A stretch of 64,000 nt of DNA from an uncultured delta proteobacterium (GTDB taxonomy: Bacteria; Desulfobacterota; Syntrophobacteria; Syntrophobacterales; Syntrophobacteraceae): contig CAVYEB010000002.1 in NCBI GenBank assembly GCA_963767585.1, positions 2,080,865 through 2,144,864 on the forward strand, read 5' to 3'. Below, in pieces: positions 1,790 to 57,634 of this stretch (position 1 is its first letter; each line of letters starts with the position of its first letter). The translations under genes were made by a program, and so were the position numbers. The notes below the pieces were generated by a model. It was not told where the DNA came from and made no database searches. It was given only the letters and a program-made list of their open reading frames with translations.

Positions 1790-1792
1790 CTC

Positions 1793-2125
1793 TCACATCG
1801 AAAGCTTTTCGGCTATCTTTCGCATCTGCACGCCATGCGCCAGTGACGCGCCTCCACGTATGGCGTTCGTAACGTGGATCGCTTCGGTCATTTCATCGAG
1901 GTTCGATCCCTTCTCCAGGCACGCCACAGTGTAGGCATCGATACAATAAGGACACTGAACCGCATGCGCCACTGCCAGGGCGATGAGCGCCTTTTCCCGT
2001 TCCGTCAGCGCCCCGTCTGCGAAGACCGCTCCGTAATAGTCGAAAAACTTCTTAGCCAACTCGGGAGCGCTTTTGCCGATTTCTTCGAATTTTGCCAGGT
2101 CTTGCGGGTCGTAATAGGTTTCCAC
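1793..2125 (-). CDS. AhpD-like / carboxymuconolactone decarboxylase family protein (peroxidase-like partner of ArsS-type genes)
   Basis: CPYC motif within ALIALAVAHAVQCPYCIDAY. GTG at 2123-2125 lies 7 nt after AAGGAGGA. The stop is 3 nt from the arsS-like ATG. Confidence 0.8.
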   Translation of the reverse strand: METYYDPQDLAKFEEIGKSAPELAKKFFDYYGAVFADGALTEREKALIALAVAHAVQCPYCIDAYTVACLEKGSNLDEMTEAIHVTNAIRGGASLAHGVQMRKIAEKLSM

Positions 2126-2350
2126 TAGTCTATCCTCCTTTTGACGGCCGGGTCCCATTTTACCACAAATTCTCTGCCCGGCGACAGAGTGTTTTGTATT
2201 CTCTCTGCAGGCTCCGGGACCGGGAACAGGGGTTTACCGAACCGGATCGGCCAAGTCATCGAACCCAATAGAAAAGCCCGCGTCAAACGGCGCGGGCATT
2301 GCTAACGCTACGAGCATTTACATGAGCAAAACTCTCATGCTCAACGCATC

Positions 2351-2432
2351 ATTCATCAGAAATTATTTGCTAATCACTATTTATTAATCGCTACTTGATA
2401 TCACTATTCATTAATCACTAATTACTATTCTT
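2351..2432 (-). repeat. AT-rich TAATCACTA-type word array immediately after the dsrP stop
   Basis: ttgctaatcactatttattaatcgctacttgatatcactattcattaatcactaattactattc. Confidence 0.85.
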
Positions 2433-3590
2433 CTATGCTTTCAGTTCTTCTTTGACCGAAACGGCAATCTTGTAAAGCACGGTCAGGACGAAGAATCCGG
2501 TTGCCCAGATCCCGAGTGCTATCATGATCTCAAGCAACCTGGGCGAGTATTCGCGAACCTGGTCGAGCGGGTTTGGGATGAAGCCGGCCACGATGAGACC
2601 GACGCCTTTTTCAATATACATGGAAAAGAAGACGCAGACGGAGGCGGCGAGGAGCATCCTGTCATTTTTGCGAATGTCCGGGTGCAGGAGCAGCACTACC
2701 CCGGCTATTGCAAGTATGGCAAACAGCCACGAAAGCGGGACAAGTTTGTGATGGCCCTCAAGTCCTACAAACAGGTACTTGAGCGCGTTCATATGGTCCG
2801 GAATATTGCTGTAAAAAGCCGTAAAGAACTCCAGACCCACGAAGAAAACACTTATCAGCATGGCGTATGTCATGATCATCGACAGCTTGTCGATGGCTTC
2901 CTTACCCGGATCGAATTTGGTGTACTTTTTCACCAGGAAGGAAAGCATAATGAGCAGCGCCGGACCGGAGCAGAAAGCTGAAGCGAGAAAGCGCGCAGCC
3001 ATGATGGCGGTAAGCCAGTAATCTCTTGCCGGAAGACCGGCGTAGAGGAATGCCGTGACCGTGTGAATGCTGACCGCCCAGGGGATCGAGATGTAGATGA
3101 GCGGCTTTACCCATTTCGGGTAATGGGTCCCCTTGCGCTCGGCCTCCAGCACGTTCCAGCCAATTAGAATGTTCAGCAGAAGGTATCCGTTCAAAACGAT
3201 CATGTCCCAGAAAAGGATCGAATTGGGCGTGGGATAAATCAAGACGTTGAGCAGGCGCATCGGCTTGCCAAGGTCCACCACGATGAACATGAGACACATG
3301 GTGACGGCAGCTATGGCGAGAAATTCGCCCAAAATGGTAATTTTGCCAAATGCCTTCACGTCGTGCAGGTAATAAGGCAGCACGACCATGACCGCCGAGG
3401 CGGCCACACCGACCAGAAAGGTGAACTGGGCGATGTAGATCCCCCAGGAAACGTCCCTGCTAAGGCCGGTGATCGTAAGACCCCTGTTCCACTGGCTGAG
3501 GTAGGCGATAAAACCGAGCCCCATGAAGACGAGCAGGACCCCAAGCAGTTTTTTGTATCTTGTGCCTCCAGTAAGTGCTCTTTCAAGCAT
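2433..3590 (-). CDS. dsrP: DsrP, NrfD/PsrC-type integral membrane subunit
   Basis: 385-aa polytopic membrane ORF, last gene of the dsrM-K-J-O-P order. Confidence 0.85.
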   Translation of the reverse strand: MLERALTGGTRYKKLLGVLLVFMGLGFIAYLSQWNRGLTITGLSRDVSWGIYIAQFTFLVGVAASAVMVVLPYYLHDVKAFGKITILGEFLAIAAVTMCLMFIVVDLGKPMRLLNVLIYPTPNSILFWDMIVLNGYLLLNILIGWNVLEAERKGTHYPKWVKPLIYISIPWAVSIHTVTAFLYAGLPARDYWLTAIMAARFLASAFCSGPALLIMLSFLVKKYTKFDPGKEAIDKLSMIMTYAMLISVFFVGLEFFTAFYSNIPDHMNALKYLFVGLEGHHKLVPLSWLFAILAIAGVVLLLHPDIRKNDRMLLAASVCVFFSMYIEKGVGLIVAGFIPNPLDQVREYSPRLLEIMIALGIWATGFFVLTVLYKIAVSVKEELKA

Positions 3591-3610
3591 ATCCCTGTCT
3601 CCTTTGGAGA

Positions 3611-3693
3611 AGGCAAAAGTAAAAAGTAAAACGGCAAAATAGAAAAACTGATGATCTCTCCACTTTTACCTTTTACCTTTTGCCTTTTTACTT
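3611..3693. repeat. GGCAAAAGTAAAA word-hairpin in the dsrO / dsrP spacer
   Basis: aggcaaaagtaaaaagtaaaacggcaaaa - 23 nt - cttttaccttttaccttttgcctttttactt. Confidence 0.9.
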
Positions 3694-4474
3694 AAATGAT
3701 GTAATAGACGCCGGGCTCGGTTCCCAGCTCGGGTTTGCGCCTTATTGAAAACTGTGAAGCAAGGGCTTTTCTAACATCGGAATTCGGGTCTTCCAGGTCG
3801 CCGAATGAAAGCGCCTTGCATTTGCACGCCTCGACACACGCGGGAATCTTTCCAACCGCAAGCCTCTCTTCACAGAAGCTGCACTTCTCGACAACCCCCC
3901 GGTCCCTGGTTGGGAAGGTGGGGTTGAGCTCAGTTTTGATATATGGACGCGGGTCTCTGAAATTGAAGCTCCTGGCGCCGTAAGGGCAGGCGGCCATGCA
4001 ATACCTGCATCCGATGCAGCGGTGGAAATCCATCATCGTGATCCCGTCGGCCCTCTTGAATGTGGCCTTGGTGGGACAAACCCGCGTGCAAGGGGCATGA
4101 GTGCAGTGATTGCAAAGCAGGATGAAGGGTTTCTCTCTTATGGATTCGGGTTCCATGCCGCTTTCCTGCCCGGGGAAGACGTTCTCATACTTCGCCTCCC
4201 AGATCCACTTGATCTCTTCCTTCTCGGTGCCGATATCCGGAACGTTGTGGGTCGAATGGCAAACGAGCAAACAGTCCTGGCAACCCGCAGGTCCTTTTTC
4301 CCAGCACTTCTTCATGTCAATAGCCATCGCCCATCGCTTGGCGGTAAGGCCCTGGACATTCAATACGAACTTTGGCGCTTCGGTTTTGCCGAATGCATCG
4401 GCTGCCTTCAAAGATCCCAGTCCAAGCGCGCAAACGCCGCCGATTTTCAGAAAGGTCCTTCTACTGGTTTCCAT
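3692..4474 (-). CDS. dsrO: DsrO, periplasmic 4Fe-4S ferredoxin-like subunit with Tat signal
   Basis: Start trimmed to METSRRTFLKIGGVCALGLG (twin-arginine). Multiple CxxCxxCxxxCP clusters. The ATG overlaps the dsrJ TAA (TAATG). Confidence 0.85.
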   Translation of the reverse strand: METSRRTFLKIGGVCALGLGSLKAADAFGKTEAPKFVLNVQGLTAKRWAMAIDMKKCWEKGPAGCQDCLLVCHSTHNVPDIGTEKEEIKWIWEAKYENVFPGQESGMEPESIREKPFILLCNHCTHAPCTRVCPTKATFKRADGITMMDFHRCIGCRYCMAACPYGARSFNFRDPRPYIKTELNPTFPTRDRGVVEKCSFCEERLAVGKIPACVEACKCKALSFGDLEDPNSDVRKALASQFSIRRKPELGTEPGVYYII

Positions 4475-4977
4475 TACTTGTTCTCCTTTCCAAAAGTGGC
4501 GAAAAGCGACGAATGGGAAGCCGGAAAAGAACGGTTTTCGACCGTTGCTTTCTGCTCCGCGCTCCCTGGTTTTTCGCTCGGAGCTATATGGCAATTCCAG
4601 CAGTAAGGATCGGCTCCCTTTTCGAGGCCGGCGTAGTTATGGCACTGGTCGCAGAATTGAGACTTGTTGGAGTGACACTTCATGCACTCGTTCTGAAGAC
4701 TCATTTCATAGGTTTTGCCGTCGCCTGCCACATACATTCTCTTGCCGTTCCGGACAACCTGTGTTCTCCAGTCGTTCAGAACCTTCATATGTTCGGTGAT
4801 CATCTGGTCTTTTGGCAGCACGCACTGCTTGTTGATCATCTTGCTGATCACCGGAGTATCGATCTTGGGGTCCGGCGGCGGAGCGGCCTTGCCGTGAGTG
4901 AACCATACCGGGAAAGTTGCCAGCACGATGAAAACGATCAGGCCGACAAGGATATATTTTCCGTCATATATCTTCAT
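4474..4977 (-). CDS. dsrJ: DsrJ, membrane-anchored triheme cytochrome c
   Basis: Three CxxCH motifs (CMKCH, CDQCH, CWNCH). Start MKIYDGKY follows GGAGGA. N-terminal anchor helix. Confidence 0.85.
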   Translation of the reverse strand: MKIYDGKYILVGLIVFIVLATFPVWFTHGKAAPPPDPKIDTPVISKMINKQCVLPKDQMITEHMKVLNDWRTQVVRNGKRMYVAGDGKTYEMSLQNECMKCHSNKSQFCDQCHNYAGLEKGADPYCWNCHIAPSEKPGSAEQKATVENRSFPASHSSLFATFGKENK

Positions 4978-6583
4978 TCTCACTATCCTCCATTCCTGGC
5001 AAAGGCTCACCGCGCAGGTCGGTGGTCCTCTCGGTTTCGCCTTCCATCACCATGGCGTTGGCCACCAGTTCGTGAACTCCGTAGACGGTTACACCCGGGA
5101 CCCAGTAATCCATCGAGGCGGTAAGCACTGCACGGTCGATTGCGCAAATGGTCGCAAGCGCGTTCACGCCGTGCTGCTCACGAACGTGGCGTACTGCATT
5201 GGCCCGGGGCAATCCGCCCCGCATTCTCATTTCCATGAACTCGTCGTTGTTCAAGCCCGACCCCGAACCGCAACAGAAAGTCTGTTCCCGGATCGTGTTG
5301 GGCGGCATCTCGTGGAAGTTGTTGCAAACGTTATTGATCACGTAACGCGGTTCTTCAAGAAAGCCCATGCCGCGCGCAGTGTTGCAGGAATCATGGTAAG
5401 TCACTACCAAATTATCGTTGCGGCTCGCGTCGAGTTTTAACTTGCCGTTTTTTATCAGATCGGCCGTAAACTCCACGATGTGAATCATTTTGGTGGACGT
5501 GGCGTTGTCGAACCTGGTGCCGGTAATGGGAGATACGGGCACTTCGAGAAAATCCGCAGGTCCGTTCATCGTATCCATATACTGGTTTATTACACGCCAC
5601 ATGTGGCCGCATTCACCGCCGATGATGTATTTTACGCCCAGCCTTTTCGCTTCGGCGTACATCTTGGCGTTGAGGCGCTTCATCATCTCGTGAGAGGTAA
5701 AAAGGCCGAAATTTCCGCCCTCGGACGCATAGGTGCTCCAGGTGTAATCGAGCCCCATCTCGTGGAAAAGCATCAGGTATCCCATAAGAGTATAAGTGCC
5801 GGGATCTGCGAAAACGTCACCCGAGGGAGTGACGAACAGGATCTCGGCCCCCTTGCGGTTGAAAGTCGGCTCGCACCGTATTCCGTTGACCGCCTCGATT
5901 TCATCTACGAAAAACTCGATCATGTCCTTGAATGCGTGAGGCTGAATGCCGAGGTGGTTGCCGTTTTGATAGCAATTGGCCACCGGGCCCACGACCCAGT
6001 CGATGTTCAGGCCTAAAAGGTTCAAAAGTTCCCGGCCGATAATCGTAACCTCCGCCGTATCGATTCCGTAGGGACAGAAAAGCGAGCAACGGCGGCATTC
6101 CGTGCATTGGAAAAAGTACATGAACCATTCTTTGATCACGTCTTCGGTAAGCTCGCGGGCGCCAACCATTTGGCCCATGATCTTCCCGGCAAGAGAGAAA
6201 TTCTTGCGGTAGACCGACCTCAGAAGCTCAGCCCTGAGCACGGGCATGTTCTTCGGGTCGCCCGAACCAAGGTAGAAGTGGCACTTGTCGGAGCAGGCGC
6301 CGCATCGCACGCATATGTCCATGAAAAGTTTCAGCGAGCGGTATTTGTCCAGCCGTTCCCTCAGGCCTTCCAGAATGATTTGTTTCCAGTTGGCAGGCAG
6401 TTTCCAGTCTTCATCGAGCGGAGACCATTCCCTGGGGTTTGGAAGTCCGACGACTTCCAGGTTCTTCGCTTTTCCGGGATAGCTGAAATTTCCAGGCCGG
6501 AACACGGCCGGAGTGTCCATCCATCCGCTTTGGGGAAATGGATGTTCTATTGGTAGTTCGGTTGCTTTGGGGATCTTGGCCAT
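4964..6583 (-). CDS. dsrK: DsrK, HdrD-like iron-sulfur (CCG domain) catalytic subunit
   Basis: 539 aa with CxxCxxCxxxC clusters and C-terminal CCG-type Cys motifs, positioned between dsrM and dsrJ. Confidence 0.88.
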   Translation of the reverse strand: MAKIPKATELPIEHPFPQSGWMDTPAVFRPGNFSYPGKAKNLEVVGLPNPREWSPLDEDWKLPANWKQIILEGLRERLDKYRSLKLFMDICVRCGACSDKCHFYLGSGDPKNMPVLRAELLRSVYRKNFSLAGKIMGQMVGARELTEDVIKEWFMYFFQCTECRRCSLFCPYGIDTAEVTIIGRELLNLLGLNIDWVVGPVANCYQNGNHLGIQPHAFKDMIEFFVDEIEAVNGIRCEPTFNRKGAEILFVTPSGDVFADPGTYTLMGYLMLFHEMGLDYTWSTYASEGGNFGLFTSHEMMKRLNAKMYAEAKRLGVKYIIGGECGHMWRVINQYMDTMNGPADFLEVPVSPITGTRFDNATSTKMIHIVEFTADLIKNGKLKLDASRNDNLVVTYHDSCNTARGMGFLEEPRYVINNVCNNFHEMPPNTIREQTFCCGSGSGLNNDEFMEMRMRGGLPRANAVRHVREQHGVNALATICAIDRAVLTASMDYWVPGVTVYGVHELVANAMVMEGETERTTDLRGEPLPGMEDSENEDI

Positions 6584-6610
6584 TGTGGTTGTAACTCCTC
6601 ATTCAGGGGG

Positions 6611-6674
6611 CAGCGGTCAGTCTTCAGTGGTCAGGGTTTTTCCTGTCCACCGGCCACAGTCCACTGGCGGCTGA
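6611..6674. repeat. GGTCAG/CAGTGG word-hairpin in the dsrM / dsrK spacer
   Basis: cagcggtcagtcttcagtggtcagg gttttt cctgtccaccggccacagtccactggcggctg. Confidence 0.8.
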
Positions 6675-6676
6675 TT

Positions 6677-7696
6677 TCAATTTTTTGCTGTAGCCTGAGA
6701 TTCGTCCAATTCCTTTTCAACGGGCAGTCCGGCCTCGACCATCTTTTCCCTGAAATGGTCTTCGTACTCAGCGTATGTATGGACTTTGACCGGGTAGTTC
6801 CAAGGATTTATGTGACGCCTCATGCGGGTGTCATTTGGAAGATTGCGCGTGGGACTGAGAAAGACCCCTCCCGCGTGCATCAGCTTGCTGAAAGGAAAGT
6901 AGGCAAACAGAGCGCTCACCAGGAAAAGATGGATGAAAAAAACCACTCCGATCCCCTGCGGGACCACCGGATTGAGTGTAACGATCCCCATGGCAAGCTG
7001 CTTCACCTTGATCAGGTCGACCTTGGTAAAATAGCGGGTAAGAATCCCCGTCGTTCCGATTGCAAGGAGCAGGAAGAGGGGAAAATAATCCTGCGGGAGC
7101 GATATGTAGCGCACCTGCGGAATGATCAACCTTCTGACCAGAAGATAAGTTACCGCTGCAATAAAGATCGCGTCGGTGATGTAGATGCCTGGCAGCCCAA
7201 CCTGCAAAATGCCGTCAAGCCTTTCGATACCATGAACGAAAAAGGGCACGGGCTCGGTGAAAAAGCGCAGATGCCTGATCAGGATCACAAGGAAACAGTA
7301 ATGGAAGGCAAGCCCAGCCAGCCAGAGCCATTTTTCCCACTGGTAGTAGAATTTGGGTCCTTTTTCCATCTCGAACTTTGTGTTTCTAAAAAGCGAGCGG
7401 AATAAGAGCACCTCCAGGAGCATTCTGCCTACGACCTGCCCCTTGGTGGAAGGGTTGTCAAATTTGCTGTAGGGTATCCAGGGCAGAGACTTCTGCTGGC
7501 CGGCCGTTGTGGGGATCCCGAATGGAACAGGTGATCTTGCCCACTTGAGGACCCTGTAGACTATGCCGAAGAGGAAAAGTGAAATGGCAATGCACGGCAT
7601 GGTCACACCGAAAAAGTGCTGTTGGCCGACCTTGACTCCGAAAAAAGCAGCCAAAACGAGCGCAACGACTACAGCTAGAGAAAATCTTATGCCCAT
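6677..7696 (-). CDS. dsrM: DsrM, NarI-like dihaem cytochrome b membrane subunit
   Basis: 339-aa membrane ORF, first gene of the dsrMKJOP order. Confidence 0.85.
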   Translation of the reverse strand: MGIRFSLAVVVALVLAAFFGVKVGQQHFFGVTMPCIAISLFLFGIVYRVLKWARSPVPFGIPTTAGQQKSLPWIPYSKFDNPSTKGQVVGRMLLEVLLFRSLFRNTKFEMEKGPKFYYQWEKWLWLAGLAFHYCFLVILIRHLRFFTEPVPFFVHGIERLDGILQVGLPGIYITDAIFIAAVTYLLVRRLIIPQVRYISLPQDYFPLFLLLAIGTTGILTRYFTKVDLIKVKQLAMGIVTLNPVVPQGIGVVFFIHLFLVSALFAYFPFSKLMHAGGVFLSPTRNLPNDTRMRRHINPWNYPVKVHTYAEYEDHFREKMVEAGLPVEKELDESQATAKN

Positions 7697-10594: not shown

Positions 10595-10624
10595 CTCAGT
10601 CCTCAGTCCTCAGTCCTCAGTCCT
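10595..10624 (-). repeat. GGACTGA heptamer array (about 4.3 copies)
   Basis: ctcagtc x4, read directly. Confidence 0.95.
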
Positions 10625-19146: not shown

Positions 19147-19642
19147 TTTGAACTCATTCCAGTTTTGAGGCTGCCAAGGCAAAAATCTGCCGATTTACGA
19201 AGGAAGTATAATTGTAAGTGTTGATCCCTTACCAGGAATGCGAATCTTGCCCGGGAAGCTTTTCGGTCAGGTGTGGCGTTCATGAAGGATTTCCTTGGAT
19301 GCGGCGTACATTCTTAAATGCTCTCGGACACCACTCTGGATCAGTCTATTACCTATTTCGACATAGAAAGAAAGGAAAAAGAGGAGGTGTAGGCCTCACC
19401 GAGACCGCGTGGAGATTTCGGTTGAGCAGCGTGGATATGGAGGCTGCGAAACCAATTTTTGCGGTCCTCGGAAGAGCACTGTCAGCTATTCAACTATCTC
19501 TCCTCGGCCTTGACTTTTGGACTGCCTAAATCTTTGCTGTTTCCGAATCTCACTTTGATACTCTTATTCAGCGGAAGATCTGGCGGGCAGCTCATCAGCT
19601 ATTTCAAATGCGGCGCTGCGGTAACAGCGTCGTTCACGACGA

Positions 19643-19684
19643 GGACTGAGGACTGAGGACTGAGGACTGAGGACTGAGGACTGA
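19643..19684 (+). repeat. GGACTGA heptamer array, 6 perfect copies
   Basis: ggactga x6, read directly. Confidence 0.97.
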
Positions 19685-19812: not shown

Positions 19813-19899
19813 TCCATCTCAACGATCGCTTATTCTGGAGATCCATCCTCCGGGGTGGGGGATGTCTCCACATCTTTGGAGAAATCAAGGGAGAAGAAA

Positions 19900-20154
19900 T
19901 TGCCTATTTACGAATTTCGGTGTGCGGGTTGCGGCAATGTCGAGGAATTCATCCTGACGGGTAGCCGGGAAATCGAGATGAAGTGCAGCGCGTGCGGAGG
20001 GGAAGGCCTGGAGCGCGTCATCAGCCGAACAAACTATGTGATGGGTTCATCGGGTTCGTCGAAGGGAGCCGATATTTCTGCCACATCGCGCTCATGCGGA
20101 CCCGGGCAATCGTGCACGTCCATAGAACTGCCGGGACATAAAAGAGAGGACTGA
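19900..20154 (+). CDS. FmdB-family putative regulatory zinc-ribbon protein
   Basis: TTG start after AAGGGAGAAG gives (M)PIYEFRCAGCG...KCSACGG, the classic FmdB N-terminus. Confidence 0.7.
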   Translation: MPIYEFRCAGCGNVEEFILTGSREIEMKCSACGGEGLERVISRTNYVMGSSGSSKGADISATSRSCGPGQSCTSIELPGHKRED

Positions 20155-20176
20155 GGACTAAGGACTGAGGACTGAG
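20146..20176 (+). repeat. GGACTGA-type array supplying the zinc-ribbon gene stop (a copy at 20530-20560 lies inside the duplication)
   Basis: gaggactgaggactaaggactgaggactgagg. Confidence 0.95.
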
Positions 20177-20188
20177 GGGGGGACGAGT

Positions 20189-20509
20189 GTGGCCAAGGTC
20201 GACAGATTCGAAGATTTGATTGCCTGGCAGAAAGCGCGGGAGCTGATACGGGCTGTCTATGAGGTTACGCGGCTCGGGGTCTTTGCCAAGGACTATAACC
20301 TAAGCGGGCAGATTCAGCGGGCCGCCGTTTCGATCATGTCGAATATCGCCGAGGGGTTTGAGCGCGGTGGTCGTGGCGAATTTCACCAGTTCCTTTCCAC
20401 TGCCAAGGCGTCATGCGCGGAAGTGCGTTCCCAACTATACGTCGCCAGGGAGCCGATATTTCTGCCACATCGCGCTCATGCGGACCCGGGCAATCGTGCA
20501 CGTCCATAG
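20189..20509 (+). pseudogene. truncated/chimeric four-helix-bundle (23S rRNA IVS-type) gene created by the duplication
   Basis: Identical to the intact copy through ...RSQLYVA, then reads out of frame into the duplicated 3' end of the zinc-ribbon gene. Confidence 0.8.
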
Positions 20510-20572
20510 AACTGCCGGGACATAAAAGAGAGGACTGAGGACTAAGGACTGAGGACTGAGGGGGGGACGAGT

Positions 20573-20905
20573 GTGGCCAAGGTCGACAGATTCGAAGATT
20601 TGATTGCCTGGCAGAAAGCGCGGGAGCTGATACGGGCCGTCTATGAGGTTGCGCGGCTCGGGGCCTTTGCCAAGGACTATAACCTAAGCGGGCAGATTCA
20701 GCGGGCCGCCGTTTCGATCATGTCGAATATCGCCGAGGGGTTTGAGCGCGGTGGTCGTGGCGAATTTCACCAGTTCCTTTCCACTGCCAAGGCGTCATGC
20801 GCGGAAGTGCGTTCCCAACTATACGTCGCCCTGGATATAGGTTATCTGGACAAGGCGTCATTCGACGCACTCATGCAGCAAGCTGAGGAAGTGCTCGAAT
20901 TGTAG
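20573..20905 (+). CDS. four-helix-bundle protein (23S rRNA intervening-sequence protein family)
   Basis: [26 protein letters not shown]...[10 protein letters not shown]...[25 protein letters not shown] is typical of this family. Confidence 0.85.
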
Positions 20906-23872: not shown

Positions 23873-26455
23873 ATGCCACTTGAATCATATCATGAAAAAC
23901 GCCGCTTCCAACGCACCCCTGAGCCGCAGGGGAAGGTTGAAGCGACCCCGGGAGGCAATCTCTATATAATCCAGAAACACGCAGCAAGCCACCTTCATTA
24001 CGACCTTCGACTCGAGCTTGACGGGGTCCTCAAGAGCTGGGCGGTGCCTAAAGGCCCAAGCCTTAAGCCGACCGAGAAAAGGCTTGCCGTCCATGTAGAA
24101 GACCACCCGATAGAATACGGTTCTTTTGAGGGAATGATCCCGGAGGGAGAATACGGGGCGGGAACGGTCATGCTCTGGGATCGCGGAACGTGGGAGCCTG
24201 GGGGTGACCCTCATGCGGGATACGCCAAAGGTGACTTCAAGTTCAAACTGCACGGCGAGAAGCTGAAAGGGAGCTGGGTGCTTGCAAGAATGAAAGGAAA
24301 AGCGGGGGGAGACGAGGGCAAGAACTGGCTGCTTATAAAAAAACGCGACGATGCGGCTATCTCCGGATCTGAACCGGAACCCGTCGAAGTTTTGGACCGG
24401 AGTGTGGCGAGCGGGCGCACAATGCAGGAAATTTCGTCTCAGAGTGATAAATTCTGGATCGTCCCATCCGACCTGCCCGGCGTTCGTCAGGCAGATCAGC
24501 CGGAATTTATGCAATTACAGCTCGCAACGCCGGGCGATAAACCTCCAAAGGGTGAAAACTGGCTGCATGAAATTAAATACGACGGCTACCGGATATTGTG
24601 CAGACTCCGCGAAGGACAGGCGCGGCTTTTTTCACGGAATGAAAAGGAATGGACGAACCGGTTTCCTCAGATAGCTGAAGCTGCCGCCAGGATTCCAATC
24701 GAAAGCGCATTTTTGGACGGAGAGGTGGCGGTCATTGACGAGCATGGAAAGACCGACTTTCAGGCGCTTCAGAATATCCTCCAGGGAACACATACGGGCA
24801 AGCTCGTCTACTTCGTTTTCGATATACCGTTTTGCGCCGGCTACGATCTCACGCAAACACCGCTTATTAAGCGCAAGGAGCTTCTGCTAAAGAAACTATT
24901 GTCGCTCAAACATTCGAACGGCGAATCCCAGGTCCTCTACGCAGATCACATTGTCGGGCAGGGAGAGTCCGTCTTTCAATCAGCGTGCAGGCTCGGGCTC
25001 GAGGGCATTGTTTCCAAGCGTGCCGACAGCAGCTATGAAAAGGGGAGGGGCAGGAACTGGATCAAGGTGAAATGCTCCATGAGGCAGGAGTTTGTAGTTG
25101 GGGGATTCACCGATCCGGGTGGTTCCCGGATAGGTTTTGGCGCGCTGTTGCTCGGATACTATAGCCCGCAGGGCCGGCTGGTTTATGCAGGTAGAACTGG
25201 AACTGGATTCGACGACCAGACCCTTGAAACTCTCTCAAAGCGACTGGTGCGGATGGAAACCGACACGCCGACGTTCAGCAATCCTCCTGCAGGCTATGAG
25301 GCCAAGGGGGTCCATTGGATCAGGCCGGAACTGGTGGCTGAGGTGGTATTCAGCGCCTGGACCGATGATGGAGTTCTTCGCCACCCCGCTTTCAAAGGAT
25401 TAAGGGAGGATAAGGACCCAAAAGATGTTGTCCGGGAGGACAACGGAGGACGGAAGAAAGAGGAATTAGGAGTGGCGCCTACTTCTTGGCGCAAGGCTGG
25501 AGTGAGATTGGCCGGCGCCGAACCGGAGGTTAGGGAAGAGGGCGGAGAACAGAGGACACAGGACGGAAGGCGGAAGACAGGAGGCAAAATGACGGCTCTT
25601 ACGAACCCGAATCGGGTTTTCTACCCCGAAATTGGGGTGACCAAACGCGCCCTTGCCGAATATTACACCGAAATCGCCGACTGGATTATGCCGCATCTTG
25701 CGGGGCGTCCGCTTACCCTCGTGCGCTGTCCGGAAGGACGGGAGAAGGAGTGCTTCTTTCAGAAACATCTCCGGGATGGGGCCCCTGAGATCCTCAGGTC
25801 TATCCCGGTAATGGAAAAAAACGAGAAAGTATACTACAGCGTCGCCGACAATATCGAAGGCGTCATAGCGCTGGTTCAGATGGGAGCTTTGGAAATACAT
25901 GTATGGGGGAGCCGGGAAGATAAGCTGGAGCAGCCGGACATGATGATATTCGATCTCGATCCCGCGCCTGAGGTCGACTGGGGTGAAATGGTCAAGGCCG
26001 CCAGGCTCATGCGCGAGCGGCTCTCAAACCTGGGACTGGAGAGCTTTGTGAAGACGACCGGAGGAAAAGGGCTGCACATAGTAGTCCCTCTTACTCCCAA
26101 TGCGGACTGGGAAACGGTCAAGGCGTTTTCCAAAGCGGTGGCGGACAGCATAGTCCGGGAGTACCCCGGAAAATATATCGCCACTATGTCCAAAGAAAAG
26201 CGCAAGGGTAAGATTTTTATCGATTATCTTAGAAACGGGCGTGGGGCGACAAGCGTAGCGGCTTATTCCACAAGAAGCCGGCATGGCGCTCCCATATCAA
26301 CACCCGTCGCATGGGATGAGCTTACCACCGACCTCAAACCGGACAGCTACAACATCCAAAATATCCGTGGCAGATTGTCCCACCTCCAGGGCGACCCCTG
26401 GGCAGGATATTTTTCGCTCCGGCAGGAAATAGACATAGATGCAATTAGAAATTAG
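23873..26455 (+). CDS. ligD: DNA ligase D (3'-phosphoesterase - ATP-dependent ligase - polymerase/primase domains)
   Basis: N-terminus YHEKRRFQRTPEP...HYDLRLE (PE domain); ligase KYDGYR motif; C-terminal LTNPNRVFYPE...DLDP... polymerase domain. Confidence 0.9.
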   Translation: MPLESYHEKRRFQRTPEPQGKVEATPGGNLYIIQKHAASHLHYDLRLELDGVLKSWAVPKGPSLKPTEKRLAVHVEDHPIEYGSFEGMIPEGEYGAGTVMLWDRGTWEPGGDPHAGYAKGDFKFKLHGEKLKGSWVLARMKGKAGGDEGKNWLLIKKRDDAAISGSEPEPVEVLDRSVASGRTMQEISSQSDKFWIVPSDLPGVRQADQPEFMQLQLATPGDKPPKGENWLHEIKYDGYRILCRLREGQARLFSRNEKEWTNRFPQIAEAAARIPIESAFLDGEVAVIDEHGKTDFQALQNILQGTHTGKLVYFVFDIPFCAGYDLTQTPLIKRKELLLKKLLSLKHSNGESQVLYADHIVGQGESVFQSACRLGLEGIVSKRADSSYEKGRGRNWIKVKCSMRQEFVVGGFTDPGGSRIGFGALLLGYYSPQGRLVYAGRTGTGFDDQTLETLSKRLVRMETDTPTFSNPPAGYEAKGVHWIRPELVAEVVFSAWTDDGVLRHPAFKGLREDKDPKDVVREDNGGRKKEELGVAPTSWRKAGVRLAGAEPEVREEGGEQRTQDGRRKTGGKMTALTNPNRVFYPEIGVTKRALAEYYTEIADWIMPHLAGRPLTLVRCPEGREKECFFQKHLRDGAPEILRSIPVMEKNEKVYYSVADNIEGVIALVQMGALEIHVWGSREDKLEQPDMMIFDLDPAPEVDWGEMVKAARLMRERLSNLGLESFVKTTGGKGLHIVVPLTPNADWETVKAFSKAVADSIVREYPGKYIATMSKEKRKGKIFIDYLRNGRGATSVAAYSTRSRHGAPISTPVAWDELTTDLKPDSYNIQNIRGRLSHLQGDPWAGYFSLRQEIDIDAIRN

Positions 26456-43349: not shown

Positions 43350-44765
43350 TTAGTGAACCAATGGCTCGGGCGGCTTGTGGCCGCTCATCACGGCGCCTGC
43401 GTCAGGGGTTAATCTTCTTAATGGAAATATGGAAAGTATCGCGATGACCCCGATGATAGCAAAGGCCGGCCAGAAATCATCGGCCTTCAAAGAAGTCTGG
43501 TGATGCCAGTTGAGCGTGAGGCTGAGCAAAAGGGCCCCCGTTCCCACGCCCAGACTCAAAAACAATTGTTGCAACGTACTGAACAATGTCGTGGCGCGGC
43601 TCATCGACACGCTGGGAACGTCGGCAAACACGAGAGTGTTAAACCCCATGAACTGTAGCGAACGGAAGAAGCTGCCGACCAGCAAAACCGCCACGATCAC
43701 GATATGCGATGTGTTCGGACGAAATAGACCGCAAGCGCTTATGGAGACTGCACAAATGAATGCATTCCAGATCAGCATACGACGAAAACCCAGACTGCCG
43801 ATTATAAACCGGGCAAACATCTTGACAAGAAGGGCGCCAATGGCAAGAGAAACGGTCAAAAATCCTGACATCAGCGGGCTCAGGCCAAAGCCGATTTGAA
43901 GCATGAGCGGCAACAAAAAAGGCATGGCGCCGATTCCGATGCGAAACAAAGAGCCGGCTTCAATACAGGCGCGAAAAGTTGATAGCCGGAACAGGCTCAG
44001 GTCGACAATGGGCGAAGGCGCACGCCGCGCGTGCATGAGATAAAGTGCAAAGCAAAGAAGGCCTCCGATCAGGAGTGTAGCAATCGCTCCTTTTGTCAAC
44101 ATGCCCCGGCCTACGGTCTCAAAACTGGCTACCAGGCCGGCCAGGGCTGCGGCCATCAGAAGGAACCCGCGAACATCCAGCGGCCCGACCTTTTCCTCGC
44201 GAATATTGTCGATGAACAGGGTGACCAAAATTATGCCCAGAAGCCCGATCGGCAGATTGATGAAAAATATCCACCGCCATGAAAAATACGTAACGATCAC
44301 GCCTCCCACCGGGGGCCCCACAACCGGCCCGAGCATTGCTGGCGTCGTCAACCAGGTCATGGCGGTCACCAATTTATGTTTGGGGACCATCTTCAGCACC
44401 ACAAGCCGTCCGACAGGCATCATCATAGCGCCGCCCAGTCCCTGTACCAGACGCGCACATACAAGTTGCAAAAGGCTTTGCGACAATCCGCAAAGTGCCG
44501 ATGCCAACGTGAAAATAACGATAGCGGCTCGGAACACCGTGCGCGCGCCAAATCGATCTGCCGCCCAACCGCTGAGTGGGATGAACAGCGCAAGGCTGAA
44601 TAGATAGCCCGTAATGGCGAGATTAAGGTGAATAGGGTCCGTGTGCAATGACCGTGCGATGACCGGCAGGGCCGTCGCGATGATCGACCCGTCAAGAAGT
44701 TCCATGAAAAGAGCGCTGGCGACGATAAGGGAAACGAGCGAGGTGCGCGGCAATAGGGAAGACAT
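43350..44765 (-). CDS. MFS transporter, 14-TM DHA2/EmrB-like
   Basis: Start trimmed to MSSLLPRTSLVSL. GWAADRFGAR motif. About 14 predicted helices. Confidence 0.8.
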   Translation of the reverse strand: MSSLLPRTSLVSLIVASALFMELLDGSIIATALPVIARSLHTDPIHLNLAITGYLFSLALFIPLSGWAADRFGARTVFRAAIVIFTLASALCGLSQSLLQLVCARLVQGLGGAMMMPVGRLVVLKMVPKHKLVTAMTWLTTPAMLGPVVGPPVGGVIVTYFSWRWIFFINLPIGLLGIILVTLFIDNIREEKVGPLDVRGFLLMAAALAGLVASFETVGRGMLTKGAIATLLIGGLLCFALYLMHARRAPSPIVDLSLFRLSTFRACIEAGSLFRIGIGAMPFLLPLMLQIGFGLSPLMSGFLTVSLAIGALLVKMFARFIIGSLGFRRMLIWNAFICAVSISACGLFRPNTSHIVIVAVLLVGSFFRSLQFMGFNTLVFADVPSVSMSRATTLFSTLQQLFLSLGVGTGALLLSLTLNWHHQTSLKADDFWPAFAIIGVIAILSIFPLRRLTPDAGAVMSGHKPPEPLVH

Positions 44766-44860
44766 ATGACTGGACCCGGGTCTGGGGGTGTTCTGACGAG
44801 ATATCGACAAGTTTTTGTGCAACTGCGATCCTTTGGCCCTTGAAGATCTCAAAAACCTTC

Positions 44861-44914: not shown

Positions 44915-45128
44915 CGCGCCTTTTCAGATTGTGATTTTATCAGGTCAGGAAAGGAATGTGAAAGGGATGGTGTTTAGTCAAAAAGTGATGGGGGCGCAGG
45001 AATACCCCACATAACATCCCTGCTCGCATCCCTACGGCGGAGGTACGCCTCAAGGCCTGTTTCGTTCCTTGCTTTTACGCCGCAGATCAGCAGCCTGCGC
45101 CCCTTTAACCGGCGTCTTTGGCCGGGTC

Positions 45129-45875
45129 TCACCTGTTTTCCTCCTGGTAAGGGGAATCCATTTTGTCGAACCGATCGGGGACCTTCATACAGGATGTGAA
45201 GTCCATCGCTTGTGCGCCGGTGGACGTTTCGGCCAGGCATTTCAGGACCTTGATGGTATCGGCCGGTTCAGGCCTTACGGTGTAGTCTGCGTTGACGTCG
45301 GCGGAGCGAATTATCCCCGACCGATCGATTACGAAGCGTCCAGGCATAGGCAGTGTCCAGGATTCATCTCCGTTAAACTTTTCAAGGTCAACCCCGAAGC
45401 TGAGGTAGACTTTGCGCAAATCTTCCGGGAGTTGATAAACCAGGTTGAACTTGCGTGCCACCCGATTGCCGGGATCGCTCAACAACTGCAGATTCAACCC
45501 CTTTTCGTTGGCAAACCTGCGATTGAATTCTTCGAGTTGAGGCGAAACGGCTACAAGGGACGCACCAAATGATGCCATCTCGGGAAGGGCCTTTTCAAGA
45601 GCTGCCAGCTCCAGATTGCAGTATGGTCACCATCCTCCCCTGTAAAAGCTCAAGACAACCGGGCCTCGTTCCAACAGTGAGCCAAGGCTGACGAGAGAGT
45701 CTTGTGTATCCTTAAGAGAAAAATCGGGGGCCCTGTCCCCGACTTTTAGGACCTTCTCTTTAAGGCCGGACTTTTCGAGTTCTTCGGTCGCCTGGTGCAT
45801 GATCGCCCGTTTTTCCTCAGGAATCCTTGCTTCCGACCTTGCCTTCAGCGCATTTAATTCTTCTTGAAGTGTCAT
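45129..45875 (-). CDS. peroxiredoxin-like (PRX_like2 / AhpC-TSA fold) thiol-disulfide oxidoreductase; predicted selenoprotein with UGA 45627-45629 read as Sec
   Basis: Track ORFs 45627..45917 and 45129..45578 share one frame. Hand translation across the gap gives SFYRGGW-TGA-PYCNLELAALEKALPEMASFG, where Cys forms have WCPYC. Start MTLQEEL follows GAGAGGAG. Confidence 0.8.
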
Positions 45876-45910
45876 CTCAATTCTCCTCTCACTCATAATA
45901 TATACATGAA

Positions 45911-45950
45911 AAGGCAATTTGGAGTTGGGAATGAGGAATTAGGAATTGAG
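45911..45950 (+). repeat. AATTAGGAATG-family array
   Basis: aaggcaatttggagttgggaatgaggaattaggaattgag. Confidence 0.9.
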
Positions 45951-46137: not shown

Positions 46138-47418
46138 TCAGGCGTTGCCGCCGCCGTTGGAACGCGTACCTGAAGGCTTCGAATGCCTCTTGAAGCGGTG
46201 GTTCGAGGGGCGGCCGGTTTTTTCATTACTCTGCAGTTTGTCGCCCTTGCGTGGGGCCGCTTTTGATTTTTTCGAGCTGATGAACGCTTGAGAAGGTTCC
46301 AGGCCGGGAATAACATGAACGGCAAGATTATGCCCCGTATAGCGTTGAATGCGATCCAGGTAAGGGAAGTCAGGACGCGAAGCAAGCGAGATTGCAATCC
46401 CCGACTCCGATGCACGCCCGGTTCGCCCGATGCGGTTTACGTAGTCTTCAGCCGATCGGGGCAGGTCAAAGTTTATAACGTGGCTTATGCCTGTTATATC
46501 TATTCCGCGCGCGGCTACATCGGTTGCCACCAGGACCCTGATCTTACCCCGTCGCATGTTCTCCATTGTATGATTTCTGGCGGACTGGGTCATGTCGCCA
46601 TGAAGCGCGGCGACCCCTAAGCCTTCAGTCCGGAGTTCTCCCGCCAGGTTTTCAGCGTCTCTTTTGGTTGCGGTAAACACGATGGCTTTCGTCAGTTCGC
46701 TGTCTGAACACAGATGCCGCAGTAGGCGGTTCTTGTGCTGGAGTCCGTCTGCAATATGGAGACGCTGCTCGATTTTATCGTGTGTAATCTTGACCTGCGC
46801 CAATTCAACACGGTCAGGGTCTTTCATGAATTTTCCCCCTAGTCTGCTCGCCGCCTCATCCATCGTAGCCGCGAACAGGAGGGTCTGGCAGCCCTCCGGC
46901 ATGGCATCCGTTACAAATTCCACGTCATTTATAAAGCCCATGTCCAGCATGCGGTCGGCTTCGTCGAGGACCAGCAGTTCAACATTTGACAGATTTATCC
47001 GGCCGCGCCAGATGTGGTCGATCAGCCTTCCGGGGGTTGCGATGATCATATCCGGCGATTGGGCCAGTGCTCTTATCTGGTCTCCAAAGGGCATTCCGCC
47101 GTATATTGCCACGCTGTGTACCTTGAGGTATCTTGCGTAGGTGCGCGTCGCCCTGGCGATCTGTTCAGCCAGTTCGCGGGTTGGTGTAAGAACCAGGACA
47201 CGCAATCCCTTCTTGGCTGGATTGTCAAATAATCTCTGGAGGGCGGGCAGAACGAACGCCGCCGTTTTGCCGGTACCGGTCTTGGCAGAAGCGATCAGGT
47301 CCCGGCCGGAAAGTGCCCTGGGAATAGCTTGTTGCTGGATGGGTGTTGGATTTTCATGGCCGCATCGGGCCAAAGCTTTGAGAATTGGCGGAGCAAGTTG
47401 CATTTGTTCAAACGACAT
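46138..47418 (-). CDS. DEAD-box ATP-dependent RNA helicase (RhlE-like) with basic C-terminal tail
   Basis: Q-motif PTPIQQQAIP, AKTGTGKT, DEAD, SAT and HRIGRTGR motifs. Confidence 0.9.
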   Translation of the reverse strand: MSFEQMQLAPPILKALARCGHENPTPIQQQAIPRALSGRDLIASAKTGTGKTAAFVLPALQRLFDNPAKKGLRVLVLTPTRELAEQIARATRTYARYLKVHSVAIYGGMPFGDQIRALAQSPDMIIATPGRLIDHIWRGRINLSNVELLVLDEADRMLDMGFINDVEFVTDAMPEGCQTLLFAATMDEAASRLGGKFMKDPDRVELAQVKITHDKIEQRLHIADGLQHKNRLLRHLCSDSELTKAIVFTATKRDAENLAGELRTEGLGVAALHGDMTQSARNHTMENMRRGKIRVLVATDVAARGIDITGISHVINFDLPRSAEDYVNRIGRTGRASESGIAISLASRPDFPYLDRIQRYTGHNLAVHVIPGLEPSQAFISSKKSKAAPRKGDKLQSNEKTGRPSNHRFKRHSKPSGTRSNGGGNA

Positions 47419-47987
47419 AAAGTTTTCGATCCTTGACTGTTCCTGACTCGAATATAGTTCGGCGGCAGGGCTGTAGAAGTGGCTTCCAGCCACGACAGAT
47501 TTGTATTCGTCGCGCCTGAAACCGGGGTTTTAATCGTAGAGGCCGACTAAGTTCAGGCCTCGCAGCAGCACACACATGTGGCCGACACAAAATCATCGTC
47601 GCCAACCGGTATGCTGTGCAAAGAGAAAATATGCCCGTGAGCAAGGAGGCCAGTGATCGATGGGGCTTGACGGCAGGCCGGAAAGAACTGAATTTCCAGG
47701 TCGCAGACGTCAAAAGCTAATTGGACGTATGATACACTATAAATTGCAAATAGCAAGTCACAAGTCTACAATATTCACTGCTTTACAACAGGGAATTGTA
47801 AAATAATTGAGTGTCGAGTGTTCTTTTCCGGATTACTGCGGTTATCGCAGGATGTTAATAATACGTCCATGACAATCAATATTCCACCCATTACTTGGAA
47901 GATATCCATGGAGAGAAAGGACTATTTTCCCGAGGCTCTCCCGATGGAGTATTCCGGATGAACAGGGATACAGGAGGAAAATCCATA

Positions 47988-48935
47988 ATGAAAAAAACTT
48001 TTCTCGTCGCGTTATTAGCATTTGCGACAATAGCGACAATGACACCATATGTGCATGCCGCAGCAGAAGACCTGTTCGACGCTGCTAAAGAAGGAGACAT
48101 TGCTGCAACCCGCCGGTTGCTGGAATGCGGCGCGAACGTAAATGTCAGAAATGAAAACCTGGAGACGCCTTTGCATTGGGCCGCTTATTGGGGCAAGACC
48201 GATGTCGCTGCATTTCTCATTCAGAAATGCGCAAAAGTGAATGCCAGGGATTACTACCAAAAGACGCCGTTGCATGATGCCGCTTCCCGGGGCAGGAACG
48301 ATGTTGCGGCATTGCTCACTCAGAACGGCGCAAAAATAAACGCCGGGGATTATTACCGGGAGACGCCATTGCATCATGCGGCCTATTTTGACAGGACCGA
48401 AATTGCGGCATTTCTCATCGATAAAGGTGCAAAGGTAAATGCCAGGGACGAGAATCAACAGACGCCGTTGCATTGGGCTGCAGAGGACCAGATTGAAGTG
48501 GTTGCATTGCTCATCGATAAGGGCGCAAAAGTAGATGCCAGGGACAATTACCAGGAGACGCCGTTGCACCATAACGCCTCCCGGGGCAAGACGGAGGTTG
48601 CCGCGTTCCTGATCGATAAAGGCGCAGACGTAAATGCCAGGAATGAGGACCAATGGACGCCTTTGCATAATGCTGCCTTTGCGGGCAACACCGAGGTTGC
48701 GGCATTGCTTATTGATAAAGGCGCAGACGTAAATGCCAGGGGCGTGAACCAAAAAACACCGTTGCACTGGGCTGCTTTTGCGGGCAGTACCGGTGTTGCG
48801 GCATTGCTTATTGACAAAGGCGCAGACGTAAATGCCAGAGACGTGAACCAGAAAACGCCGCTGTATTGGGCTGATCTTGTGGGCAACACCGAGGTTGTGG
48901 CACTGCTTAAAAGGCAATTAGGAACTAGGAATTAG
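47988..48935 (+). CDS. secreted ankyrin-repeat protein (about 9 repeats)
   Basis: AGGAGG-N8-ATG. Signal peptide MKKTFLVALLAFATIATMTPYVHA. Repeated TPLHWAA..G...VAALLIDKGADVNAR units. Confidence 0.85.
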   Translation: MKKTFLVALLAFATIATMTPYVHAAAEDLFDAAKEGDIAATRRLLECGANVNVRNENLETPLHWAAYWGKTDVAAFLIQKCAKVNARDYYQKTPLHDAASRGRNDVAALLTQNGAKINAGDYYRETPLHHAAYFDRTEIAAFLIDKGAKVNARDENQQTPLHWAAEDQIEVVALLIDKGAKVDARDNYQETPLHHNASRGKTEVAAFLIDKGADVNARNEDQWTPLHNAAFAGNTEVAALLIDKGADVNARGVNQKTPLHWAAFAGSTGVAALLIDKGADVNARDVNQKTPLYWADLVGNTEVVALLKRQLGTRN

Positions 48936-57048: not shown

Positions 57049-57634
57049 TAGGACTGGGACAGGACTCTCAGTCCTCAGTCCTCAGTCCTCAGTCCTCAGT
57101 AAGGGGGAGGACGAGGTCATAAAGTATTTCCGAAAACTCCACGGCGCGGCGGAAGGAGGGGGAGAGGCACTTCCCTACCGATTGACCGCCTCAGGCGCCT
57201 GGGCTGCCTCGCGGCCTGGTTACCTGTTCAATTTTTTTAAAAAAATAAACCTATCATCGTTCGGCCTCTTTGTAGACCTTGGCAGCGGAGACGGAGTTGT
57301 CTGCTGCGTCGCAAGCCTGTTCACCACGGCGGTCGGAATAGAATCCGATCCTTTTCTGATATCGCGTGCTGCACAAGCCGCGCGGGAACTGAAACTCGAG
57401 GGCCGCGCGGGGTTCATTCGCGCCGATTTCCTTACTCAACGCATTCAGGCGGCAGACTGTCTGTTCATCTATCCGGACAAGCCCGTCTATCCACTGGAGA
57501 AGGTCCTGAATGGCTGGGGTGGGACCCTTTTAATCTCAGGCCCTCATTTTCCCCCAAAGCAGTTTTCGCTGAAAGAAAAGCTCCAGTGCGACACGGAGAC
57601 GCTGTCGGTGTATGTCGGAAGCCGTGAAGCATGA
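57023..57634 (+). CDS. SAM-dependent methyltransferase-like protein (start unresolved)
   Basis: VDLGSGDGVV motif I. The only in-frame ATG is at 57023, which makes the heptamer array translated ([12 protein letters not shown]). There is no ATG/GTG/TTG between the array and residue ~50 except TTG at 57182. Confidence 0.45.
   Translation: MNPTQSLDNRTGTGLSVLSPQSSVLSKGEDEVIKYFRKLHGAAEGGGEALPYRLTASGAWAASRPGYLFNFFKKINLSSFGLFVDLGSGDGVVCCVASLFTTAVGIESDPFLISRAAQAARELKLEGRAGFIRADFLTQRIQAADCLFIYPDKPVYPLEKVLNGWGGTLLISGPHFPPKQFSLKEKLQCDTETLSVYVGSREA
57051..57100. terminator. GGACTGG/GGACT words followed by an inverted CTCAGTC x5 array (hairpin) after the beta-helix gene
   Basis: ggactgggacaggact | ctcagtcctcagtcctcagtcctcagtcctcagt. 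Confidence 0.6.

Follow-up and report, generated by a model that had tools for sequence, protein, structure and literature searches.

The locus examined here, in a stretch of 64,000 nucleotides of bacterial DNA (the window), raises the question of whether two open reading frames (ORFs) listed separately on the minus strand belong to a single gene in which an internal UGA is read as selenocysteine (Sec). Listed as 45627..45917 (96 aa, from a TTG) and 45129..45578 (149 aa), the two have a common frame and are separated by a gap of 48 nt, i.e., 16 codons (PYCNLELAALEKALPE). The initial annotation had deduced this shared frame from the coordinates and had translated the gap by hand; on re-reading, its arithmetic and its translation are both correct, with the TGA at 45627-45629 and a fused protein of 248 aa. 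Translation of 45129-45875 yields one 248-codon frame with a lone internal stop, which reads MTLQEEL...FYRGGW*PYCNLELAALEKALPEMASFG..., and the minus-strand letters around the UGA are TAC AGG GGA GGA TGG TGA CCA TAC TGC AAT CTG GAG CTG GCA GCT CTT GAA. From sequence comparison we propose, with a probability of roughly 0.88, that 45129-45875 is one gene for a 248-residue selenoprotein of the peroxiredoxin (Prx)/thioredoxin (Trx) fold, in which UGA codon 83 is recoded as Sec. The features of the locus are collected in Table 1.

The gene starts at ATG 45873-45875. It is preceded by a Shine-Dalgarno sequence, and MTLQ or MTLK is the N-terminus of all orthologues, in line with this ATG; the same two observations rule out the TTG at 45917 as the start. 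The tryptic peptide expected across the predicted Sec would be GGW-U-PYCNLELAALEK.

Table 1. Predicted features of the selenoprotein locus (positions in the window; for the SECIS, the U of the UGA is position 1).
Feature	Position	Strand	Details and basis
Complete selenoprotein CDS (predicted)	45129..45875	minus	248 codons and TGA stop 45129-45131; AhpC/TSA-fold, Prx-like oxidoreductase
In-frame UGA, predicted Sec codon (residue U83)	45627..45629	minus	sequence and translation; column holds TGA or Cys codons only
Shine-Dalgarno AGGAG	45883..45887	minus	7 nt 5' of ATG 45873-45875; direct reading
Redox motif U83-P-Y-C86	45618..45629	minus	HMMER alignment to PrxQ/BCP/AhpE structures; AF2 model of Cys homologue
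Bacterial SECIS hairpin (predicted)	45595..45615	minus	nt +15 to +35; comparative pairing, codon fixation, RNAalifold
SECIS core stem G18-C22 / G28-U32	45608-45612 paired with 45598-45602	minus	core hairpin spans +16 to +34
SECIS loop U23-G24-G25-C26-A27	45603-45607	minus	
SECIS lower pairs C16-G34, U15-A35; U17/U33 mismatch	within 45595..45615	minus	
C-terminal tail, residues 213-248	45132..45239	minus	Cys213 45237-45239, Cys229 45189-45191; alignment, translations
Weak terminator-like hairpin	44991..45008	minus	about 120 nt past the stop codon; consensus scan only

Domain, fold and redox centre

The fused product had been placed among the thioredoxin-fold AhpC-TSA proteins in the initial annotation, and this placement is borne out by the domain search. 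When the stop was replaced by Cys, the translation matched PF00578 (AhpC/TSA) over residues 45-191, thus spanning the UGA, with E = 1.3e-28 and 99.9 bits (cut-off 26), and Redoxin PF08534 was also matched (E = 8e-19). ORF finders and the public record divide the locus differently, into what would be two genes, an 82-residue peptide up to the UGA and a 149-residue protein from ATG 45578, possibly the parts of a split enzyme. This is the least probable of the alternatives that we weighed: the Pfam domain crosses the junction, the 16 codons from the UGA to the ATG encode the invariant active-site segment PYCNxEL, and a split would strip the redox centre from both pieces. Moreover, the internal start varies by orthologue, giving products of 141, 149, 154 and 156 aa.

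A Cys homologue, P0024, which is 53% identical, was modelled with AlphaFold (pLDDT 95.4). The model has the Prx/BCP/AhpE fold, with Foldseek TM-scores to Prx structures of 0.84-0.89, normalised to target, and an additional N-terminal helix pair; position 83 lies directly before, and caps, helix 84-102. The redox centre F-Y-R-G-x-W-C-P-x-C that the initial annotation had given for the family was recovered in the homologues as F-[YF]-R-G-x-W-[C/U]-P-x-C. In the HMMER alignment, FYRGGWCPYC (with U written as C) is aligned with FYPAAFTQVC of the PrxQ/BCP/AhpE structures, so that C86 falls in the peroxidatic-Cys column (2ywn, 2cx3 and 1xvw) and U83 in the column that is Thr in the TxxC motif of Prx. 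This column is equivalent to that of the N-terminal Cys in a CxxC of the thioredoxin type, as is general for CxxC-derived motifs. The canonical Prx motif PxxxTxxC is departed from at two positions, Thr being replaced by Sec/Cys and Pro by Arg (FYR vs FYP), and the residue in place of the Pro, R79, is invariant across the family. The Arg in 'PGRFVID' is offset by two positions from the Arg in AhpE 'NRGTFVVD', and is Thr in P0024 and P0120. Because the Prx Thr and Pro are replaced and the catalytic Arg seems not to keep its register, the centre would be a Trx-like UxxC with no Prx triad, and an activity of the thiol:disulfide type is somewhat more likely than classical peroxidase chemistry.

Among the NCBIfam models, sub-threshold matches alone were obtained (Bcp, SelL-related redox protein, ResA and PrxU), and no curated naming model fits the protein. 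PrxU (NF040737) scored 34 bits against a cut-off of 270 and the SelL-related redox protein (NF040769) scored 49.3 bits against a cut-off of 120; on these scores and the HMMER alignment, membership of PrxU, of the SelL-related proteins and of the canonical Prx was rejected. That no curated naming model covers the protein may be the reason why the public record of the gene holds a 149-aa fragment only (P0002, 100% identical). Assignment to CDD PRX_like2 (cd02970), the family named in the initial annotation, is uncertain, since the consensus quoted for that family in cyanobacteria, IFTExxYCPFCxPH (PMC3514251), is unlike FYRGxWCPYCNxE.

The UGA column and the hairpin downstream

The residue found at the UGA column was compared over 83 homologous loci, comprising 80 from a species-level scan (one genome each), the loci found earlier and the window. 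TGA stands in this column in 34 (32 distinct sequences), TGC in 40 and TGT in 9, i.e., Cys in 49, and nothing else, so that all 83 have Cys or Sec there, as the initial annotation had anticipated. Such a recurrence of the in-frame TGA goes far past what chance would give. The identical in-frame TGA is present in the DNA of orthologues that are 79%, 71% and 57% identical. The TGA-containing loci (Sec forms) belong to Syntrophobacteraceae, to Desulfobacterales (among them the isolate Desulfoluna limicola ASN36), to Rokubacteria/Methylomirabilota and to Thermodesulfovibrionia, and further to Gemmatimonadota, Acidobacteriota and Actinomycetota. The Cys forms come from aerobic Proteobacteria and from cyanobacteria, which are reported to be without Sec use (PMC9312934). 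In a neighbour-joining tree one clade holds most of the Sec forms, and one Sec form, L051, is placed amid the Cys forms of cyanobacteria, which looks like an independent Cys-to-Sec switch. In comparisons of the window gene with three orthologues, dN/dS is 0.14-0.20 over codons 1-82 and likewise over codons 84-212, which indicates that both halves are kept as protein in one frame.

Another alternative is read-through of the UGA with a residue other than Sec, by a reassigned code (code 4 or 25) or by a near-cognate Trp or Cys tRNA. The close database homologues are either truncated (141-156 aa) or translated by gene callers with 'WWPYC' at this site (P0003, P0009, P0013), and the UGA-C context, known from E. 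coli as a weak one for termination, may be a weak terminator here. On the other hand, TGA is the stop codon of 12 of the 24 long window ORFs taken as genes (most of them Pfam-supported), this gene included, and as an ordinary stop in the window it excludes a reassigned code. Under table 11, locus L005 has a stop at this site and does not match the W-containing database protein; the W of the 'WWPYC' entries thus reflects the choice of a TGA=Trp code by the gene callers. In addition, the sole alternative residue in the 49 homologues is Cys, with no Trp or Gly, and non-Sec read-through leaves a conserved SECIS-type hairpin unexplained. We regard it as very unlikely, and as the least improbable of the alternatives.

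This hairpin had been noticed in the initial annotation as a stem-loop, GGAGC-UGGCA-GCUCU, which could not be confirmed there by eye as a full SECIS element. It lies where it had been placed, with G18 as the 15th nucleotide past the UGA, and comparative analysis now supports it as a SECIS core conserved in the Sec forms. In the window it reads C16-U-G-G-A-G-C22 / U23-G-G-C-A27 / G28-C-U-C-U-U-G34. Sec forms of several phyla, 31 of them distinct, retain the hairpin, and it is absent from Cys forms: over 7 stem positions, the mean number paired is 6.25 in the 32 distinct Sec sequences vs 3.8 in the 49 Cys sequences. In an alignment of 31 Sec sequences (A2), 89.9% of cells pair, compared with 29-49% when the partners are slid by 1-3 columns, and covariation is seen at pairs 16:34 (GC/CG/UA) and 17:33 (CG/UG/AU/UA). 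The 5-bp core, 18-22/28-32, was recovered independently by RNAalifold.

The same structure is visible in the choice of synonymous codons. Glu +6 is GAG in 31/32 Sec forms, whereas the Cys forms have 24 GAG and 21 GAA (Fisher p = 2e-6); Leu +7 is CUG in 32/32 Sec forms vs 21/49 Cys forms (p = 9e-9); and Ala +9 is GCU in 31/32 Sec forms vs 3/45 of the Ala codons of Cys forms (p = 3e-18). For Pro +1 and Gly -3, all four codons are used within the same Sec sequences, and this saturation of synonymous sites argues against shared ancestry as the cause of the codon fixation. Since most Sec forms make up one clade, the identity of the SECIS could nevertheless be in part inherited rather than maintained. 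The encoded E-L-x-A-L peptide is a further constraint on the core GAGCUGGNNGCUC, which is therefore nearly invariant across several phyla. L051 carries a different, longer (9-bp) hairpin at the same place, which fits a need for a hairpin of some kind.

Relative to the published bacterial SECIS model, in which the loop is 3-9 nt with G within its initial two positions (typically N1-G-[G|U]-N-N2), the stem 4-16 bp, the spacing from UGA to loop 16-37 nt and the MFE <= -7.5 kcal/mol (PMC13188914), the window hairpin falls within all four limits, with loop UGGCA (3-5 nt), a stem of 5-6 bp, a spacing of 19-20 nt and an MFE of -7.8 kcal/mol (nt 13-37). It is short, and its energy lies narrowly inside the limit (-7.8 vs -7.5 kcal/mol); its pair probability in context is 0.83. 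When a wider, 81-nt segment was folded as a single sequence, its stability was no better than that of shuffles (z = -0.69), so that this SECIS is not identifiable by single-sequence energy and comparative analysis is required. No SECIS family was found in Rfam, either at gathering thresholds or in a permissive search by E-value of 45480-45720; a lncRNA match (E = 6.6) was set aside as chance.

These comparisons also bear on the possibility that the locus is a pseudogene or contains a sequencing error, with a Cys codon TGC or TGT mutated to, or misread as, TGA. A TGA is one substitution from either codon, the public annotation has the 149-aa fragment only (P0002), and no Sec machinery is seen in the window. 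The same TGA is nonetheless shared by 32 distinct sequences, which stem from several phyla and independent assemblies, purifying selection acts on either side of it, and a hairpin that is missing in Cys forms is kept through synonymous-codon fixation. We therefore consider a pseudogene or an error highly improbable, and retain Sec insertion at codon 83 as the preferred reading.

Host, genomic context and proposed mechanism

The gene stands by itself, with a DEAD-box helicase gene (46138-47493) on one side and an MFS transporter gene (43350-44852) on the other; the minus strand carries all three. The window also has DsrMKJOP-like genes and genes of the futalosine pathway to menaquinone; together with best matches to Syntrophobacteraceae MAGs, these point to a sulfate-reducing or syntrophic member of the Desulfobacterota as the host. 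No synteny is shared by the neighbours of the Sec forms, in a clustering that is noisy (spurious ORFs, high-GC DNA). By eye, a GST / old-yellow-enzyme / LysR-type neighbourhood was seen in proteobacterial Cys forms only. Neither the promoter scan nor the terminator scan of the window was significant, the latter giving 4 sites vs 2.0 expected.

ARAGORN found no tRNA-Sec in the 64-kb window or in the 32 Sec-form loci, and Pfam scans, covering 20 large ORFs, found no SelA, SelB or SelD in the 64-kb window. The one ground for supposing that the host has Sec machinery is that its closest relatives are Syntrophobacteraceae, the family of the selenoprotein-rich Syntrophobacter fumaroxidans, a cultured species with the largest prokaryotic selenoproteome reported, 31-39 genes (PMC1794560, PMC9312934). 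A codon-usage-filtered scan of the window for in-frame TGA revealed no convincing second selenoprotein gene, which would have been independent evidence of Sec decoding in this organism; the sole other in-frame TGA with coding-like flanks in a sense frame, at 1793-1795, looks like a gene boundary.

In the mechanism that we propose, UGA codon 83 would be recoded as Sec in translation, dependent on the SECIS hairpin 16-34 nt downstream, which is built into the codons of the conserved helix segment L-E-L-x-A-L. Following the paradigm of E. coli fdhF, SelB with Sec-tRNA(Sec) would bind the hairpin and insert Sec. In the folded enzyme, U83 at the N-terminus of the active-site helix would be the nucleophile. 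As suggested by the CxxC-type motif and the fold, its selenolate may attack a disulfide or a peroxide as the oxidised substrate, after which U83 and C86 would form a selenenylsulfide and a thioredoxin-type reductant would regenerate the enzyme.

A C-terminal tail is confined to the clade of closest relatives, which is Syntrophobacteraceae-like (P0004, P0006, P0007, P0032). Its Cys213 and Cys229 are invariant, and its dN/dS of 0.38-0.63 indicates weaker constraint than in the rest of the protein. The tail is unmentioned in the cited literature on the Prx-like selenoprotein family. We put forward, as a doubtful proposal, that this clade has gained in C213 and C229 an internal dithiol with a resolving or relay role towards the U83/C86 selenenylsulfide and that the Sec gene, with its embedded SECIS, spreads horizontally as a unit; that one SECIS core is common to Sec forms of at least seven phyla could mean such horizontal spread. 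If the part concerning the dithiol were true, the enzyme would be self-contained and have four redox residues, a variant undescribed in the cited literature on the family.

Significance and comparison with known systems

The main practical worth of these results is the correction of annotation. For this genome and many related MAGs, the public records hold only truncated products of 141-156 aa, or translations under code 4 that wrongly put Trp at the Sec site, and with such records the counts of selenoproteins in Desulfobacterota, Rokubacteria, Gemmatimonadota and Acidobacteriota fall short. The comparative set is also a clean case of a SECIS within a CDS, in which Sec/Cys pairs reveal the synonymous sites fixed by RNA structure, and this synonymous-site signature could be usable as a specific search pattern. 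Knowledge of Sec biology is unchanged, the family having been predicted since 2004-2008.

The hairpin resembles the E. coli fdhF SECIS and the bSECISearch consensus (PMC13188914) in being an in-CDS hairpin 3' of the UGA, with G-G/U opening a small apical loop about 20 nt away. It differs from an fdhF-type SECIS in being very short (5-7 bp) with a nearly invariant core, and is a candidate SECIS by sequence and fold.

The protein shares its fold with the canonical BCP/PrxQ and AhpE Prx (3hjp, 5epf, 1xvw, 2ywn), and C86 stands in their peroxidatic-Cys column, but it has Sec for the Thr of TxxC and Arg for the Pro of PxxxTxxC, and the NCBIfam Prx equivalogs score it far under their cut-offs. It is also related to Cys-containing proteins of Proteobacteria and cyanobacteria annotated as 'peroxiredoxin-like family protein' or AhpC-TSA, such as those from Fulvitalea (P0024), Gluconacetobacter (P0091), Methylobacterium (P0092) and a cyanobacterium (P0120), which are 48-53% identical over the full length and have the N-terminal helices, as well as the motif FYRGxW-C-PYCNxEL, in common with it. 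These homologues have Cys for Sec and free synonymous codons, and are without the SECIS hairpin and the C-terminal Cys tail.

The selenoproteins nearest in description are the Prx-like thiol:disulfide oxidoreductases, which are defined as pfam00578 proteins with UxxC or UxxU and are 'predicted with high confidence' (PMC9312934, PMC13188914); the type member of the family is WP_010940744.1. Prx-like UxxC selenoproteins are on record in the Deltaproteobacteria Syntrophus, Desulfotalea and Geobacter (PMC1794560), and 'Prx-like 1' was among the more abundant selenoproteins of the GOS metagenome, with 225 sequences (PMC2398784); the statement in the initial annotation that Prx-like selenoproteins had been reported in deltaproteobacteria is thus confirmed by both papers. 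The window protein and this family have in common the Pfam domain, the UxxC motif, many Cys homologues, a SECIS just 3' of the UGA and an occurrence in anaerobic Deltaproteobacteria/Desulfobacterota, and both are known from prediction alone. The window clade differs in its N-terminal two-helix extension of about 40 residues and, in the closest relatives, in the two-Cys C-terminal tail. Since both family-defining features, pfam00578 and UxxC, occur together with the expected SECIS, we assign the predicted protein by description, as an unannotated member of the known Prx-like family.

Sec and Cys forms among the homologues

Among the homologous loci, L051:3247-3310 is a Sec form from the Deltaproteobacteria MAG Spart_222, i.e., it carries TGA in the U83 column, and it was placed among cyanobacterial Cys forms in the tree. 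The hairpin located 3' of its UGA, GAGCUGCGG-UCU-CUGCAGCUC, is longer than, and unlike, that of the other Sec forms. L051 is probably an independent Cys-to-Sec conversion carrying its own SECIS.

In public gene calls, the Sec UGA was rendered as Trp ('WWPYC') in the protein records P0003, P0009 and P0013 and in the DNA locus L005 (L005:352-1011), apparently because, where contigs were short, the gene caller picked a code that reads TGA as Trp. At L005 the same call also runs the protein beyond the real TGA stop. Such Trp-for-Sec calls are a systematic annotation artefact for selenoproteins.

Two further protein homologues contain the domain more than once, in whole or in part: P0001 (431 aa, JGI metagenome) has two complete CxxC Prx-like domains within a single chain, and in P0005 (204 aa) the C-terminal half is present twice. 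Both are tandem fusions or duplications of the Prx-like domain of the gene under study.

Other genes of the window

A DsrMKJOP-like cluster points to the host being a sulfate/sulfite-respiring member of the Desulfobacterota, and a LigD with all three domains (phosphoesterase, ATP-dependent ligase, primase-polymerase) indicates an NHEJ repair gene in the source genome. Upstream of the DEAD-box helicase gene that neighbours the gene under study, and divergently oriented, is a gene with seven DNA repeats of 99 bp, encoding a 346-aa protein that is nearly all ankyrin repeats (Pfam Ank E = 1e-69).

Features of the window by position
Feature	Position	Strand
DsrMKJOP-like cluster	860-7696	-
NrfD/DsrP-like gene, same cluster	2433-3590	-
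Fe-S/CCG DsrK-like gene, same cluster	4964-6583	-
Nitrate-reductase-gamma/DsrM-like gene, same cluster	6677-7696	-
(GAGGACT)n repeat	10595-10624, 57067-57100	reverse complement
(GAGGACT)n repeat	19641-19684, 20146-20177, 20530-20561	+
Zinc-ribbon ORF	19855-20154	+
Tandem duplication	20063-20830	
ORFs of ~106-110 aa, one per duplication copy	20189-20509, 20573-20905	
LigD gene	23873-26455	+
Ankyrin-repeat gene	47895-48935	+

Zinc-ribbon ORF, duplication and heptamer repeats

The small ORF with the motif PIYEFRCAGCG...KCSACGG is presumably an FmdB-family CxxC_CxxC zinc-ribbon protein. Sec-containing versions of the FmdB family are listed in reviews (PMC9312934); the ORF in the window is an all-Cys form.

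The tandem duplication comprises 2.0 copies of a 384-bp unit at 99% identity, and the C-terminus of the first-copy ORF has diverged at the duplication junction. We take both ORFs to resemble the four-helix-bundle '23S rRNA intervening-sequence protein'. The heptamer GAGGACT is tandemly repeated at five sites across the 64-kb window, with 4-6 copies at each, and the sites examined, a subset of the five, are positioned between long ORFs. These arrays bring to mind the short heptamers that occur as tandem repeats in cyanobacteria.
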